A stretch of DNA of 64,000 bases from Nitrosopumilus sp. (GTDB taxonomy: Archaea > Thermoproteota > Nitrososphaeria > Nitrososphaerales > Nitrosopumilaceae), in NCBI GenBank assembly GCA_965218695.1, contig OZ244651.1, forward strand, positions 1,472,001-1,536,000, in the 5' to 3' direction. This document shows positions 54,706 through 64,000 of the stretch, in pieces. A program made the position numbers and the translations under genes. Below the pieces are notes generated by a model. The model searched no databases. It had not been told where the DNA came from and was given only the letters and a program-made list of their open reading frames with translations. Position 1 is the stretch's first letter, and each line of letters opens with the position of its first letter.

Positions 54706-55905
54706 TTATTTTTTCTTGCCAGGTTTGGTTTTGGCCGGTTTAGATGCAAGAGTCGGTTTGGCAGATTTTTTGGATTTTGCCTTTGCGGTTTTTTTGGCCG
54801 GTTTGGGTTCTGGCTTGTCATGAGTTTTTGCAGGTATTTTGGGCTTAGGAGTCTGCTTGGGCGGATTTTTAATTTTTTTGGATTTTACCGTCTTTTTTAC
54901 GGTTTTTTTGGCGGATTTAGGTGCGGGTGGCTTTTTGGGCTTGGCGGATTTAGGTGCGGGTGGCTTTTTGGGCTTGGCGGATTTAGGTGCGGGTGGCTTT
55001 TTGGGCTTGGCGGATTTAGGTGCGGGTGGCTTTTTGGGCTTGGCGGATTTAGGTGCGGGTGGCTTTTTGGGCTTGGCGGATTTAGGTGCGGGTGGCTTTT
55101 TGGGCTTGGCGGATTTAGGTGCGGGTGGCTTTTTGGGCTTGGCGGATTTAGGTGCGGGTGGCTTTTTGGGCTTGGCGGATTTAGGTGCGGGTGGCTTTTT
55201 GGGCTTGGCGGATTTAGGTGCGGGTGGCTTTTTGGGTTTGGTTAGTTTCTTGGATGACGCTGCCCCGGTTTTTTTAGCGAGGGCATTCTGAAGTCTTAGC
55301 GTTTCCTGTTTCAATGCCTGTTCTGCAGATGTCACTACCCGGGCCTGCTTTTTCAGTTCTCTTGCAAGACTTCTTGCCATGCGGCGGGAATCGGTCGCGG
55401 TCTTTTCCAGGGAATTCTTCAGCTGTGCATGTTTTTGAATTTTAGAGAAGGATTTGGATTTTATTTTGGAATATTGGGCGATTTCCCGTACCACTTTTCT
55501 TGCAGTTTGTTCCCGGCTATTAATCTCAGAGACGAGATCCTGAACATGCCTGGTAAGCTGCTGCAGTCTATCGTCGGCATCCTGCTTTCCGTCAGAATCA
55601 TCAGCAGATGCCGCCTTTTGTTCAACCACAATGATCTCGTTTTTTTCCATGGACAGCCGCTGTTTGGCACCATCTACCAGCCGTCCAATACTGTCCATCT
55701 GGGAGTTTTTTTGAGCAAGAGTAGTGGAGATGTCAGATGTGTGTTCGTCTTCTACATCCATCTTCTTTTCAAGCAGTGCGATACGGGCAGACAGCCTTTT
55801 TTCGACAGAACGAATCTTATTTAGATCATTGCGGACTTTTCTCTCCAAGGCTACCGATTCCTTTGTTCTTTGATACAATTTTGCTAGTTTATCCAGGGAT
55901 GCCAT
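54706..55905 (-). CDS. coiled-coil protein with histone-H1-like Lys/Pro/Ala-rich tail
   Basis: About 210 aa coiled coil, then (KPKKPPAPKSA)x10 and a K-rich end. Confidence 0.85.
   Translation of the reverse strand: MASLDKLAKLYQRTKESVALERKVRNDLNKIRSVEKRLSARIALLEKKMDVEDEHTSDISTTLAQKNSQMDSIGRLVDGAKQRLSMEKNEIIVVEQKAASADDSDGKQDADDRLQQLTRHVQDLVSEINSREQTARKVVREIAQYSKIKSKSFSKIQKHAQLKNSLEKTATDSRRMARSLARELKKQARVVTSAEQALKQETLRLQNALAKKTGAASSKKLTKPKKPPAPKSAKPKKPPAPKSAKPKKPPAPKSAKPKKPPAPKSAKPKKPPAPKSAKPKKPPAPKSAKPKKPPAPKSAKPKKPPAPKSAKPKKPPAPKSAKPKKPPAPKSAKKTVKKTVKSKKIKNPPKQTPKPKIPAKTHDKPEPKPAKKTAKAKSKKSAKPTLASKPAKTKPGKKK
54908..55237. repeat. 33-bp tandem repeat x10 (in-frame VNTR)
   Basis: Unit TTGGCGGATTTAGGTGCGGGTGGCTTTTTGGGC, essentially identical copies with no spacers. 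Confidence 0.97.
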
Positions 55906-55960
55906 TCAATCTACCAACGATGCAGAGTATGACGTTGTTTATATAGTTAGACCTTATGCA

Positions 55961-57197
55961 GGGCGTTGTCCACATCTTCCTCAAAAAAGCAGCGTTACGC
56001 TTAAAGATCATTAGCGTCAGACATCCGAAAAGTTTTGGATCACCGATCCTGCCCACAATTAATGAATTCCAATAGAAAAAAGAGGAAAGCAAAGAACAGA
56101 GACAAGGAAGACAAGAAGAAATGGGTGCGCCCGAAAGGCTACAGCAAAAAATACGAGATGCGAAGGAGTGGGGAGGGGAAACGAGTGTCAATCGGAATCC
56201 TTGCCCTTACCACCATCCTGTACGAGATCTGCAAGCCCAAGTCCGACAAGGACCGGCGCATGATCTCCTACTTGATCTGCCTCATGGACAAGGAGTTTCG
56301 CGGCAACTCGTACCGGGAACACGTCTCGTACCTCGAGGCAAACCCAGGTTCACTGCACGTCTGCGGCTTAAAAGCCGTTCCGTCCAAATCGTGCCTGCAT
56401 GCGGCAGCCAAGAGGCTGGCAGAAAAGCAGAAGATTCTGATGGAAGTGATCCTGGGACAGGCAGGGAGTGACGCTCACGGTCCGCTCCTTGGGGACGCAA
56501 GCGGATTTTCCATCAACATCTACGCCGACTGGGAGGATGCCAAGAAGGGCATCATACCCAGGCGTCAGTTCGTCAAGCTGCACATACTGGTAGCCCCGCA
56601 CGGAAGGATCGCCGCATGCATGGTGACGCCCGGACTTGCCCACGACTCGCCGATATTCCGGAAGATGTTTGCCCGCACGCCAGACGGCGACGGGCACGTC
56701 ATGCTGGATTCGGCGTATGACGCGCACGCAAACTGCAAGATGATCTACGACAGCGGCAGAAAACCGGTGATCTGGCCCCGCAAGAACCACACCGCAAAGG
56801 GCTTCAATCCCAGGGCAGAGATGCTCCGCTGGTTCAGGCGGGATCGGGAAGGGTTCGAGAAGGTGTACCACCAGCGCAGTCTTGTCGAGTCCGTGTTCTC
56901 ATCCATGAAGGAGAGGTTCGGTTCCGTCGTGGCCGCAAAGACGTTTCCCATGCAGAGACTCCAGATAATCCTGCGAAGCATCTGCTACAACCTGATAGCA
57001 TAGGGGTCCCGGTAGGGGCAGAATGCCGGTTTCCGGTTCCAGCGGATGCCATGCACCACTAGATGAAAACGGCTCAAAAACGACCAACCGCAAGCCTGCC
57101 GACACCAGAAACCCCTTCAGAGTCCAGGTTTGGGATGCCAAAATGAACCAAAAATAGTGTGAAATAGAGCAGGATTATCAAAAGGTGGACAACGCCC
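55961..57197 (+). mobile_element. IS5-family element (ISH1/IS903-like)
   Basis: 13-bp IRs GGGCGTTGTCCAC / GTGGACAACGCCC; TSD CTTATGCA (8 bp, or 10 bp if the termini are GG). Confidence 0.92.
56035..57003 (+). CDS. IS5-family transposase
   Basis: GDASGFS, FVKLHI, MLDSAYD, YHQRSLVESVFS; homologous to the split transposase at 15555. Confidence 0.92.
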   Translation: MDHRSCPQLMNSNRKKRKAKNRDKEDKKKWVRPKGYSKKYEMRRSGEGKRVSIGILALTTILYEICKPKSDKDRRMISYLICLMDKEFRGNSYREHVSYLEANPGSLHVCGLKAVPSKSCLHAAAKRLAEKQKILMEVILGQAGSDAHGPLLGDASGFSINIYADWEDAKKGIIPRRQFVKLHILVAPHGRIAACMVTPGLAHDSPIFRKMFARTPDGDGHVMLDSAYDAHANCKMIYDSGRKPVIWPRKNHTAKGFNPRAEMLRWFRRDREGFEKVYHQRSLVESVFSSMKERFGSVVAAKTFPMQRLQIILRSICYNLIA

Positions 57198-57214
57198 CTT
57201 ATGCAGGATGCAAC

Positions 57215-57370
57215 TGGTTAGGTTCACGACTGGATTTTGAGATCAACAGACAGCGAACCTAACCTTTTACATGCAGGATCGGTGCGCAGACACGCGCCTT
57301 TCTGCATTGAGCAAACACCGACTAGTCGTACTGCCCCGCCAGGGGGTTCTTCCATCATCGCTTCACATGC
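57215..57370 (-). ncRNA. putative TnpB omegaRNA/reRNA scaffold
   Basis: Three consecutive minus-strand hairpins (about 57334-57346, 57271-57307, 57216-57264), two with G-U pairs that work only on the minus strand, ending at the element terminus. Confidence 0.5.
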
Positions 57371-57614
57371 GCCCAGTCTGGCTCGCGTGCTGGACGTATT
57401 TGCCGTACATCCCGTCGCCTTTCAGCGTGCGGTATAGTGCATTCTGGAACTCCTTGCGCGTGCGCAGACCCATCTTGTGACTAAGCCGTACTGTCTCGTT
57501 TACGATCGAACGGAACTCGGCAAACATGTGGCTGAATTCTGCACTGAGCGTGGAGTGGACCCCTGTCTTTAGGATCGTTTTTTGCAACATTTTCTGCACA
57601 TTCTTTGCCCTCAT
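57363..57614 (-). pseudogene. tnpB: internally deleted TnpB/Cas12f-like nuclease (N-terminal WED/REC part)
   Basis: MFAEFRSIVNETVRLSHKMGL...FQNALYRTLK...YGKYVQHA resembles TnpB REC helices; a shifted frame continues GACEAMMEEP (C-tail-like); no RuvC or zinc finger. Confidence 0.6.
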
Positions 57615-58456
57615 TATCTGTTTGCTACCTCCTTTGGATTTATCGCCTCCCAGCGTTGGGCAAATTCGTCTGGCGGCACGTATCCCAGGGCAGAGTGTAT
57701 CCTGTGCCTGTTGTAGTCGGCAAGCGCATCAAACAGGGCCACCTCGGCCTGTCCTGCATCCTTGAACTCGAGCGGCCAGATGTATTCTTTTTTGAGCGTC
57801 TTGTGGAACGACTCTATGTGGCCGTTCTGTTGCGGCGTGTTGACGTAGATGTACTCCAGCCTGGCGCCAAGCACGTCAATGGATTTCCTAAAGTCCCTGC
57901 TGGTGTACTGGGAACCGTTGTCAACCCTTATGGTCAGCTTGGAGGGATCCAAGTCGTGTGCTGCCACGGCGTTGGTGATTGACATGATGGCTGCATGCCG
58001 GGTGGCACGCGTGTCAAAGGCGAATCCCAACCACTGTCTGGTAAAGACGTCAAGGACGTTGAAGGAATAGCACCACCCGTCCCGTCCGCACCATATGTAT
58101 GACATGTCTGCCTCCCAGAACCGGCCGGGTTCGGTCGGCCTGGGCAGTCTCTTGTTTGAGCGGATTATCTCCGACTTGCGCATTTGGGGCACGGTCCATC
58201 CCAGTTTTCGGTATATTCGGGACACCTTTTTGCGGTTTACCGGAATTCCAGACTGTCTAGAAATCTGGGCTGCCATCCTGCGCGTCCCATACGTGGGTCT
58301 TGCACGGGCAATCTCCATGATCTCAGATTTCATGGCATCGTCGATTGCCACGACCCTTGGCTTTTTGGAATAATACCATGCAGTCCGGGACACGCCGCAG
58401 TATGAAAGGGATTTTGTCAGGCTGATGCTCTTGCATGCCTCCCTTGCTGCCGTCAT
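57614..58456 (-). CDS. IS3-family transposase OrfB (integrase core)
   Basis: YGTRRM, VNRKKV.RI, WEADMSY, RVDNGSQY, NGHIESF..TLKKE, YNRHRIHSALGY. Confidence 0.93.
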   Translation of the reverse strand: MTAAREACKSISLTKSLSYCGVSRTAWYYSKKPRVVAIDDAMKSEIMEIARARPTYGTRRMAAQISRQSGIPVNRKKVSRIYRKLGWTVPQMRKSEIIRSNKRLPRPTEPGRFWEADMSYIWCGRDGWCYSFNVLDVFTRQWLGFAFDTRATRHAAIMSITNAVAAHDLDPSKLTIRVDNGSQYTSRDFRKSIDVLGARLEYIYVNTPQQNGHIESFHKTLKKEYIWPLEFKDAGQAEVALFDALADYNRHRIHSALGYVPPDEFAQRWEAINPKEVANR

Positions 58457-58749
58457 TCTCTGCCTCCCTCCAACGTTTTTTTTAGTGCCTCGTTGGCCAC
58501 GGCGTACTCGCCGATGATCCTCTTGAGGGTCTCTACTTCCCGGGTGTGCTTCTTGAGGGCTCTGGCCGTGCCGGATCTTGCCACGGCATCCTTGCCACCC
58601 TCCAAGAACTGTTCCTTCCACATGTACAAGGTTCTTGGGGCCAGGTTGTGCTCGCGGCACAATTCTGCAGCCTTGGTCTCCGGATTGAATGTCTGCAACA
58701 CGATGCGGATCTTTTCGTTCGTGCTCCACCTTGTCTTCTTGTCAGCCAT
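58453..58749 (-). CDS. IS3-family transposase OrfA (HTH + leucine zipper)
   Basis: EKIRIV, AELCREHNL...LYMWK..F, EVETLKRIIGE; A8 slippery run at 58476-58483 leads -1 into orfB. Confidence 0.92.
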   Translation of the reverse strand: MADKKTRWSTNEKIRIVLQTFNPETKAAELCREHNLAPRTLYMWKEQFLEGGKDAVARSGTARALKKHTREVETLKRIIGEYAVANEALKKTLEGGRE

Positions 58750-59617
58750 GTTGTTCCCCCCTTGGCACGGCTAAAAAGTGTGCAATGCTGATCGTTCCTA
58801 TTCTAGCGGGGACCGGACCAGAGCGTGTGCGGCTGCCAGACGGACAGCACGTGGTGGACGGACATACTGTACATATACCGTATTTTACCTTAAAGATATG
58901 CAAACAGTTCGATCACGTGCAACTTCTTTTGAACCGGCCTTTGTAAAACTCCAAATTTTACTAAAACTGCAAAATCATGTTTTCTAAAAATTTGGAGATT
59001 GTGTATAAGATCTGTTATAAGTTGACTTTTCAGTTAGGAAAAATAACGGGACACGATTCACTGATATGTCTTTTGAGACTAAAATCCGTGTATCAGGGCC
59101 TATTTATGAAAAATCACAAAATTCACAACAGCGGGTTTGGGACAGGCTGCATGGCATTATGCAAATCATCCATGGGTGCCTGTCTTCTGCTAAATTTCAG
59201 GCATCCTGCACGCCTTGGACTGCAACTGGAATTGGGTTATTCCCGGGGGGGTCGTTGTCATTCCAAGCAGGTGCCCTCTGACTAGCCGGTAAAACCCACG
59301 CCGCGCACTTCACATATCATGCCCGTCATCAAAACCCCTCCGGCGCTCCCCTCAGCCAGGCTCTCCCGCCGGATCCTGCGTGTCTTTGCAGACACCACAG
59401 ATACCATCCTGCAGGTATCATCATGATGGTCAGCATCATGCACGATGATGGCAGACAGAATCCCTGTTGCCCATTCCCAGAGGTTTTACAAGCCGGATAC
59501 GGCTTCCCCGTCCGGATGTTTCCTATCTGTCAGACTGCAATCTGCCTCGCAGGCCATCCCTGTTGCGAGTACCGGCTGTTTTTGAAAGAATATTAGTCAA
59601 TGTACTCCAGCAGGATC

Positions 59618-62148: not shown

Positions 62149-62877
62149 AATGTGCCAGAATACTTTAAAACCATCACACAGTGGTGGGTTGATTCCAGAA
62201 TTACGGACGAGGAGTATATCAGGGCGGTAAATTATCTGGCAAACAAGCATATCATACCAACCCACTTCTCATCCGCAATTCCTATTAACTTGGTTGAAAG
62301 AATGCATGGATAGTTTTGCCGCAAGTACAATCTCCTGGCCTGCCAATGCGTGGATCACCGGCATTTCGGCCATCACGTGGATCATCTGATCCAGAAAATG
62401 CTCAGGTACTACCCAATGAAACATCCGCCGACAGGTAACACCGACAATATCGACACAAGAGGTAACAGAACCTGATGGAGTCGGGCCGTCTATCTTCGAG
62501 GTGGCTTTGGAAAAAACGTTGATCATGTGCGATGCCATCATAGTAATGTTCTATGGCCTCCTGGCTCTAATCCGATACCGGCGGCAGGTTCCTAATGTTT
62601 CTGAAAAGAGATCCTACAAGCATTTATGGCCATAATTGCCGTGGCTGCGCCAATGCCTGGCATGCATCTGATTGAAGGTGATATTGCCGGACACTGCCAT
62701 GACTAAAAATTACCGCTCTCCAATCATCTAAAGGAGCCGTTCACCGGAAAATGACCCCTTAATTGGTTCACACGGCTGCTAAAAATCCACATTAATGGAA
62801 CAGCAGAATATTCTGCGGATTACAGAATGCCAGACAAATAAGCATCATTTTGTATTCGCACTTGGCACCAGAATATT

Positions 62878-64000
62878 AGAAACTATGCGTAATCCCTCCA
62901 TTTCGCTGAATTAAACCGGAAAATGTTAAAAATTCTGATTTAATTCCCGTCATGTCAAGCGTGTGCGAACCCGTCCTGCCCGAAATGCGAAATAACGTGC
63001 GCAGCCTTGCAGCACCGCGATGTGCACGGAATTAATTGTTTGAAACGGCGCTGCCGGGGACGTTTGCCTGTTCCCAGTTTATTACCGGCCCCAGATTGCC
63101 GCCTGAAGGGGGTCCCTTCTCCAGGTAGTTCCACACGAGGTCCAGGTTTACAAGCCCTGTTATTATGTTAAATTCCCTGTTAAAGTCGCCAATCTTTCCC
63201 TTGTATGGCGCGGTAAGCCGGCCGTACCGCTTCAGCCTGCCAATGGAGTGCTCTACCTTTACCCGGGCGGAATTGATTTTGTGGTTGTGTTCTTTTTCCT
63301 CCTTTGTAAAGCGCTTGTGGTTCTTGGTCTTCTTGTGCGGCTGCAGGGTGTTTGTACCGGGCATATCCTTTGCGATTCCCTTGTAACCGCGGTCAGTAAG
63401 GGTGTGGACCCTGTCCTCTTCGGGGGTGTTCTCGTCGCACATGCGGTCCCACCACTTTCCAAATGGCAGCGGGCTCTCCCTGAGAAGCGTGATGTCGTGG
63501 ACGGATCCCACGGTGCTGTCGGATATGGCGACTATCACCCCGTTTTCGTTTATGCACACGGTGGTATTGAGGGTGAACTTTTTCTTCTTGCCAGAATACA
63601 TCATGCTTCTCATCTGTTTTTCGTCCGGCCTCTGTATGGGGCAGTGCGTGCCGTCGATCATCATGATGCCCCCGTCAGGTCCGGAAATTATTTTTTTGAG
63701 ATCCTCTTTTGTCTCCGTGTCTGCCATCTCCTTTGAGATGTTGGCAGCAGTGGGCAGCGCCACGTCAAGCACCTCGTCTAGTACATCGATATACCGGGAC
63801 ACGGTTGCCTGGTCTATTCCAAAGAATGCCGCAAGCACGCCCTGCGTGGGGTTGCCCTTTTTGTACATCAGTGACATGAGCAGCGCGTGCCTTGGGTACA
63901 GCTTGCAGCGGTTCCCGGGATCCGATGCCCTCGTCTCGTCATTCCTGAAGAGTGGGGATTTGCCGCTTTGCCTTATCCACGCCTCGGCCCTGTCAAGTAT
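62878..64000 (-). mobile_element. IS5-family (DDE_Tnp_4 type) element, partial
   Basis: Candidate end AGAAACTATGCGTAAT resembles the IR of the nested element (AGACATAATCCGTAAT); the other end lies outside the window. Confidence 0.6.
63032..64000 (-). CDS. IS5-family transposase (5'-partial)
   Basis: MIDGTHCPIQRP, YSGKKK, LTDRGYKG, RVKVEHSIGRLK; frame open to the window edge. Confidence 0.92.
   Translation of the reverse strand: MLDRAEAWIRQSGKSPLFRNDETRASDPGNRCKLYPRHALLMSLMYKKGNPTQGVLAAFFGIDQATVSRYIDVLDEVLDVALPTAANISKEMADTETKEDLKKIISGPDGGIMMIDGTHCPIQRPDEKQMRSMMYSGKKKKFTLNTTVCINENGVIVAISDSTVGSVHDITLLRESPLPFGKWWDRMCDENTPEEDRVHTLTDRGYKGIAKDMPGTNTLQPHKKTKNHKRFTKEEKEHNHKINSARVKVEHSIGRLKRYGRLTAPYKGKIGDFNREFNIITGLVNLDLVWNYLEKGPPSGGNLGPVINWEQANVPGSAVSNN

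Follow-up and report, generated by a model that had tools for sequence, protein, structure and literature searches.

The closest described counterpart of the locus analysed here is the TnpB omegaRNA (OMEGA) of elements of the IS200/IS605 type, of which ISDra2 is an example. As in that system, a structured RNA is predicted on the tnpB strand, overlapping the 3' end of tnpB and extending as far as the right end of the element. The adjoining flank would likewise supply the guide, and the structure covaries among homologs. Compared to intact omegaRNA systems, the copy in the window (the whole stretch of 64,000 nucleotides that was analysed, taken from a Nitrosopumilus sp. genome) is truncated, interrupted and without its protein. 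A further difference concerns the host element. While IS200/IS605 elements have neither terminal inverted repeats nor target duplications according to PMC13565253, the host element here has terminal inverted repeats, and two sister elements are flanked by 8-bp target duplications.

TnpBs located inside the inverted repeats of DDE transposons, as well as solo TnpBs with the same ends, are described by Altae-Tran et al. 2023 (PMC10691335). The associations of TnpB are summarised in PMC13565253 as ISL2, IS630 and IS1031, of which ISL2 and IS1031 are groups of the IS5 family. Like the elements in PMC10691335, the element studied here features a solo tnpB within inverted repeats, with the 3' end of tnpB at most 250 bp from the end of the element. 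Its ends resemble those of resident DDE_Tnp_4 (IS5-family) insertion sequences (ISs) and have TA outside both, which is a likeness to the DDE-carried TnpBs; unlike those, it has no transposase in cis.

Similarities were also found to the IS1341-type remnants of Haloquadratum, as presented in PMC3119063. An internal deletion has removed the tnpB 'core' and left the terminal parts, most copies are pseudogenes, and small non-coding repeats lie inside other mobile elements, although lineage and sequences are different here. The same paper reports that the small MITEs of Haloquadratum target other mobile elements.

Boundaries and nested insertions of the TnpB element

The interval 57215-57370 of the window is very probably a composite of pieces from two unrelated mobile elements, namely the right end of a decayed TnpB element and a 61-bp MITE (Table 1). 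The underlying TnpB-only (IS1341-like) element is bounded by inverted repeats and runs on the minus strand from 59012 to 55950. Repeat families were defined by BLAST of positions 57000-57700 against the organism's own 2.63-Mb genome (G000). Positions 57278-57388 and 57384-57548 match one paralogous locus (G000:C1:926036-927241) with identities of 95% and 90%, respectively. The stretch 58821-58900 matches the same locus, where it directly adjoins the match to 57384-57548. Based on BLAST and pairwise alignments, the window pieces 59013-58821, 57552-57384 and 57393-57271 are contiguous on the paralog (G000:C1:925920-927241).

A TnpB gene (Pfam Cas12f1-like_TNB, E 1e-19) is present in the paralog, split into two overlapping frames; relatives have single open frames of 358-407 codons. 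In tblastn comparisons, tnpB codons 1-18 of the window show 78% identity to residues 1-18 of the N-terminal ORF of the paralog, and the N-terminal fragment shows 69% identity over residues 4-73. The piece 57393-57271 aligns to the last ~39 codons and the downstream end of the paralog tnpB, on the same strand as the N-terminal fragment upstream. Positions 926280-927118 of the paralog are missing, which corresponds to an internal tnpB deletion of about 845 bp in the window. An ORF of 83 codons (57363..57614) is a chimera of the IS3 end, the tnpB fragment and an out-of-frame tail, and yielded no Pfam match.

Table 1 Features of the decayed TnpB locus, predicted helices of its right end, and two sister elements (window positions unless a locus is named)
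Feature	Position	Strand	Remarks
TnpB left end: inverted repeat GATCTTATACACAATC..., 5' region, tnpB codons 1-18 (58874-58821)	58821..59012	-	aligns to G000:C1:925920-926117
IS3-like insertion sequence within tnpB	57556..58820	-	absent from the paralog, where the flanks are contiguous
IS3-like orfA	58453..58749	-	
IS3-like orfB	57614..58729	-	Pfam rve, rve_3, HTH_21
tnpB N-terminal fragment, ~residues 19-73	57384..57552	-	90% DNA identity to paralog 926115-926279
tnpB 3' tail and right end, putative omegaRNA scaffold remnant	57271..57393	-	95% identity to paralog 927124-927234
Helix P1	57374-57368 with 57317-57309	-	
Helix P4 (CGAU/GUCG)	57360-57357 with 57322-57319	-	
Helix P3 (CCCC/GGGG, hairpin of the sequence-only reading)	57345-57342 with 57337-57334	-	
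Helix P5 (AUGCAG/CUGCAU)	57307-57302 with 57276-57271	-	
Helix P6 (GGCGCG/CGCACC)	57298-57293 with 57286-57281	-	
61-bp MITE, 18-bp imperfect inverted repeats (12-bp stem of the sequence-only reading)	57210..57270	.	5 other genomic copies, 95-98% identity
13-nt island of TnpB right-end sequence between MITE and IS	57197..57209	-	composed of the duplicated target sites of both insertions
1235-bp IS4/IS5-like IS, inverted repeat GGCGTTGTCCAC	55962..57196	+	seven other genomic copies
Transposase of the 1235-bp IS	56035..57003	+	Pfam DDE_Tnp_1
Last 12 nt of the TnpB right end, ...CUGCAUAAGGUC (RNA sense), cut off by the IS	55950..55961	-	matches paralog end ...GCATAAGGTC, followed by TA
Sister TnpB-only element, 1338 bp	L084:291-1628 (G000:C1:765674-767011)		8-bp duplication CTTGCATG
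Sister TnpB-only element, 1328 bp	L085:1471-2798 (G000:C1:825049-826376)		8-bp duplication TATCAAAA (plus strand)

The IS3-like element has the ends TGG...CCA and is flanked by a direct repeat of either 3 bp (CTC) or 7 bp (CACGCTC; 58827-58821 and 57552-57546). Since the paralog lacks the stretch 57556-58820, this stretch is an insertion, and the interval 57215-57370 lies outside the IS3-like element. An earlier, sequence-only reading had made that element the host: it was thought to reach 57215, its degenerate right inverted repeat was to double as the last omegaRNA stem, and a guide taken from the flank was to start with GUUGCAUCCUGCAUAAG. An IS3 element with a TnpB-style guide RNA and its own inverted repeat as final stem would be striking, and three hairpins at the claimed coordinates, a very stable 12-bp stem and a tnpB fragment just upstream on the same strand are in line with it. 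However, comparison with the paralog confines the IS3-like insert to 58820-57556, and the sequence from 57552 to 57271 belongs to the TnpB element. In addition, orfB of the IS3 family is a DDE/rve transposase and not TnpB, the stem is part of a 61-bp repeat that occurs at five further sites, all unrelated and each flanked by a distinct target duplication, and the supposed guide consists of the MITE end and a duplicated target. This model is hardly credible.

The 12-bp stem as such is present, with ggttaggttcac (57216-57227) pairing with gcgaacctaacc (57253-57264). Instead of being the final stem of an RNA, it consists of the inverted repeats of a 61-bp MITE that inserted independently and duplicated 9 bp of its target (ATGCAGGAT, at 57201-57209 and 57271-57279). 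Position 57215, from which the stem had been placed 1 nt away, is the end of no element and lies inside the MITE. By BLAST, 57212-57270 matches five other places in the genome at 95-98% identity. All six near-identical copies are flanked by their own, differing direct repeats of 8-9 bp, and a seventh, divergent copy by a repeat of 7 bp. The copies begin with GTAACTGGTTAGGTTCAC (GC for GT in the window copy) and end with GCGAACCTAACCTTTTAC; a contig of run X1 has a T at the MITE position 57211. The repeat is thus short and non-coding, has inverted repeats and dispersed copies, and is accompanied by a target-site duplication at each of them, as is typical for a MITE. The six target duplications have no common motif and demonstrate no preference for mobile-element targets. 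An autonomous parent was not found among five candidate sites checked, none of which had both a partner repeat and a transposase. Two 93-bp relatives, at G000:C1:2161465-2161557 and 2270193-2270285, resemble the MITE in their inverted repeats (GTAACTGnTTAGGTTC...) but differ in the core.

One of the pairs in the 12-bp stem is G-U when read on the minus strand but A-C, and hence a mismatch, on the plus strand, an asymmetry that had been taken to favour an RNA in the sense of tnpB. The same difference occurs in all six near-identical MITE copies; it is fixed between the inverted repeats of the MITE and therefore uninformative on the strand of tnpB.

The end of the 1235-bp IS (57000-57196) has seven further genomic copies at identities of at least 99% (BLAST), and direct repeats of 9-10 bp were observed at 8/8 copies examined. 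In the window, the duplication is 10 bp long (CCTTATGCAG, at 55952-55961 and 57197-57206) and consists of TnpB right-end sequence. Just left of it, ...TAGA is found at 55948-55951. Joined to the duplicated target, these bases restore the end sequence seen in the paralog, so that the true right end is at 55950, beyond the 1235-bp IS, and not at 57215. The ...GGTC end that is missing from the main right-end piece sits at 55950-55953. A TA (55949-55948) is located next to the right end, and the original flank, from which the guide would be taken, starts there. What had been proposed as the guide is composed of the MITE end, the duplicated target and right-end sequence, and not of flanking DNA. 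An RNA role therefore does not account for the degenerate inverted repeat.

Both the MITE and the 1235-bp IS are inserted within the last 20 bp of the TnpB element. Their target sites overlap by six bases (57201-57206; 55952-55961) inside its 20-bp terminal repeat. Contigs from four DNA or unknown-type runs, belonging to two studies, feature the same arrangement of IS end, MITE and right end, and a MITE-free joint was absent from the contigs of those four runs. A 399-codon ORF that follows shortly after the original TnpB flank (window 54706-55905, minus strand) contains eleven tandem copies of PKKPPAPKSAK; its N-terminal half is coiled-coil-like and rich in lysine and glutamate.

Several events account for the arrangement. 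The gene tnpB received an IS3-like element near its 5' end and lost about 845 bp, the MITE entered 10 nt from the TnpB boundary, where its inverted repeats form the strong 12-bp stem, and the 1235-bp IS4/IS5-like element was inserted 3 nt further out, either before or after the MITE. The scaffold is not continuous with the boundary in the window, as the MITE and the 1235-bp IS precede the last 10-12 nt; the paralog form is uninterrupted. Neither is there an intact cognate TnpB: the window tnpB is deleted and interrupted by the IS3-like element, the only close paralog is frameshifted, and the other copies are 3' fragments. The RNA module of the window is probably dead, with its scaffold cut before the last 10 nt and its original guide 1.3 kb away. 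The locus would accordingly represent a pseudogenised TnpB element with nested insertions, i.e. non-functional transposon debris. Pseudogenised TnpB elements with nested insertions are common in IS-rich archaeal genomes.

Structure of the right end

When examined at the level of individual hairpins, CCCC (57334-57337) and GGGGG (57342-57346) are present as the sequence-only reading had listed them. The same applies to atgcag (57271-57276) and ctgcat (57302-57307), which flank gcgca-gaca-cgcgc (57284-57297). Its proposal of a TnpB-type RNA scaffold remnant holds for the minus strand and the piece 57393-57271, which contains two of the three hairpins, but not for the 12-bp stem, which lies outside in the MITE. 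In intact relatives, the region would encode an omegaRNA scaffold with a long composite stem (P1-P4-P2-P3). The terminal stem P5 would enclose the hairpin P6, and a short single-stranded tail would end at the transposon boundary, with the guide then following from the flank.

For the whole 186-nt stretch 57195-57380, the fold z-score is -1.75 on the minus strand, where 9 of 200 shuffles did at least as well, and -1.77 on the plus strand (11 of 200). These near-equal, weak values indicate neither a strong fold signal nor a strand preference. The folding check proposed earlier thus gave a split result. The 61-nt MITE block 57210-57270 was found to beat its shuffles (z -7.29 minus, -4.61 plus; 0/200 as good), while neither the whole stretch nor the right-end remnant did. 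For the remnant 57271-57393 (123 nt), z-scores of +0.75 (minus) and -0.26 (plus) were obtained, which makes it no more stable than shuffles, and the intact paralog end (z +0.60) likewise folds no better. The MITE stem is the only thermodynamically unusual hairpin among the three.

That the genuine right end folds no better than shuffles on either strand would also fit a reading in which conservation of TnpB 3' ends reflects C-terminal coding and transposase binding at the inverted-repeat DNA, with incidental hairpins and no scaffold at all. The open tnpB frame of the paralog passes through the region and overlaps part of the scaffold, so some of the conservation could stem from coding, and the last 20 nt are an inverted repeat common to DDE_Tnp_4 ISs and to MITEs of other genomes. 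Evidence against this reading comes from the wider family. Of 401 genomes sampled from the order, 88 contain TnpB homologs (E<=1e-20), and many 3' ends of these homologs share the motifs GAAGCGATG and AGTCGATG. An alignment of 15 divergent TnpB 3' ends (A2), from which the window's subfamily and G077 were left out, yields a structure of 26 pairs in five helices. Of its 370 cells, 88.4% are paired, compared to 26-41% when the partners are slid by 1-3 columns; the values by helix are 98% (P1), 91% (Pa), 95% (P4), 75% (P2) and 78% (P3).

Compensatory changes on both sides were observed in 18/26 pairs of A2, and the observed covariation score was reached by 0/500 column shuffles, a type of test that is inflated by kinship among the sequences and, in this case, by a structure drawn from the sequences it was counted on. 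Given the slid-partner control and the large number of double changes, the self-derived structure is unlikely to be the cause. One pair in P1 occurs as GC, CG, AU and GU, and the number of distinct pair types per position is hard to obtain without RNA constraint. P3 keeps its position between lineages although its sequence is entirely different. The covariation among homologous ends that the earlier reading had called for is thus present in the 15 distant TnpB 3' ends, and neither coding nor protein binding predicts it. The absence of any scaffold is therefore very unlikely, and the family RNA probably serves as a TnpB guide scaffold.

A covariance model (R1) was built from A2. Searched at E<=10, the 64-kb window contains a single match to it, located on the minus strand at 57390-57304 (20.2 bits, E 0.0035). 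With the whole genome as search space, the match of the window copy is weak (E 0.14). In the alignment to R1, P1, P4 and P3 form, P2 does not and Pa is cut by the tnpB deletion. As a model derived from distant TnpB 3' ends matches the minus strand of the window, the sequence-only reading was right about the strand and about a TnpB-type RNA. Across the whole genome, R1 finds seven strong sites (65-88 bits), the paralog (26.6 bits, E 0.003), the window copy and the copy h1594 (17.6 bits). Searches of Rfam 15 with permissive E-values gave no match for 56500-59500 or for three loci with intact or paralogous ends. A by-product of the analysis is therefore a well-covarying structure model of ~100 nt for the 3'-end RNA of the TnpB family that has no Rfam 15 match.

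Transcription of the remnant or of the MITE hairpin in a secondary role would be conceivable, either as terminator or stabiliser of the chimeric ORF 57363..57614 or as an RNA loaded in trans by intact, ~45%-identical TnpBs. The genome's other TnpB copies indeed have open frames of 358-407 codons, each with a strong R1 match, and the nested arrangement is unchanged on contigs from the runs of two studies. However, the scaffold is broken by an insertion 10 nt short of its end, so that any guide of the window copy would be MITE sequence, and the copy scores 20 bits in comparison with 65-88 bits for intact family members. Such a role is judged to be highly improbable, and we regard the window copy as a remnant that is probably non-functional.

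Within the window's own subfamily, eight sequences were aligned (A3). The hairpin GGUGCG/CGCACC is 90.5% paired and has two compensated pairs, each in one sequence. The register GCGCG/UGCGC of the sequence-only reading is 87.9% paired with no compensated pair; GGUGCG/CGCACC is preferred, both being possible. The outer stem AUGC/GCAU is formed in six of seven informative sequences, and the two extra pairs that extend it to AUGCAG/CUGCAU in two of the seven only, the window copy and h312. No compensatory change is seen among subfamily members for P3 (CCCC/GGGG), which is disrupted in h1594, and P2 of the family model does not form. A model-guided subfamily alignment (A4) was discarded, as noise matches with E>1 swamped it, and no counts were taken from it.

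In the wider family, a helix of 4-7 bp lies beside the conserved tail in 18/18 sequences (window copy and G077 left out), formed by differing sequences. Its two strands come from the stretches directly downstream of P1 and directly upstream of the tail. As shuffles of the individual sequences were mostly non-significant, the terminal stem P5 of the wider family is considered suggestive of a scaffold helix.

Inverted repeats, candidate vehicles and relatives

The ends of the paralog are inverted repeats (13/20 positions), each bordered by TA on the outside. A set of about 20 resident ISs (1.47-1.56 kb) has GATTACGCATA...TCTA in common with these ends; the ISs are also flanked by TA, encode a DDE_Tnp_4 transposase and have the ends TAGAnnnnATGCGTAATCC. 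Examples of these ISs are L098:1-1550 (G000:C1:354183-355732) and window 62877-64000, the latter running off the right edge. The window TnpB element is flanked by CA on the left and TA on the right, the paralog by TA on both sides, and no clear target duplication beyond TA was found around either of them. The idea that an inverted repeat doubles as the last RNA stem holds for the repeat of the true TnpB element, which contains the GCAU 3' arm, but not for the repeat to which it had been attached. Judging from the similarity of the ends, the TnpB element may have been mobilised in trans by the resident DDE_Tnp_4 ISs.

Two TnpB-only sister elements of a 45%-identical group (Table 1) have inverted repeats of 24 bp (21/24 match) and perfect 8-bp duplications. 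These characteristics indicate DDE-type insertion and not the single-strand transposition of IS200/IS605. They are clear examples of solo TnpBs flanked by inverted repeats and duplicated targets, and are relevant to the question of how DDE transposons carry OMEGA modules. A tentative reading, to which we would give somewhat less than even chances, is that the module of TnpB and guide RNA in this lineage was captured by at least two DDE-type vehicles. One would have IS5-family/DDE_Tnp_4-like inverted repeats and TA, and would include the window copy and the paralog; the other would be characterised by 24-bp inverted repeats together with 8-bp duplications. The last stem and the tail would be provided by the inverted repeat in either case, so that a single sequence would serve both as transposase site and as 3' end of the RNA and would be constrained by both functions. 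The elements would be mobilised in trans by resident ISs.

Five more remnants of the subfamily in the genome consist of the right end only. As no left end lies within 2 kb of them, they are truncated remnants and not miniatures with left and right ends. G415, a genome of the same genus, contains one subfamily fragment (77% protein identity). When the paralog TnpB was searched against other genome contigs, one locus was found, in Paenibacillus (31% identical), which was unsuitable for a comparison of ends. The right end of the paralog, used as a DNA query against 201 genomes of the family, matched in five; outside the window's own genome, the matches cover only 22-37 nt. Those in G080 and G097 were rejected as TnpB right ends, being MITEs of ~80 bp with a shared terminal repeat. 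The inverted repeats of these MITEs (L033, L037, L040 and L042 in G080; L035 and L038 in G097) are identical to the right end of the paralog over 21-24 nt. Likewise, 16 metagenome-contig matches to a degenerate 22-nt right-end pattern were dismissed as chance matches, since by inspection 0/16 had neighbouring scaffold motifs. In a first-look search, G080 yielded 190 candidates for the ~80-bp MITEs. The right-end remnant h301 (L028:1545-1601 onward; G000:C1 ~301.1 kb) breaks off within the 3' hairpin, at a long (CTGC)n microsatellite.
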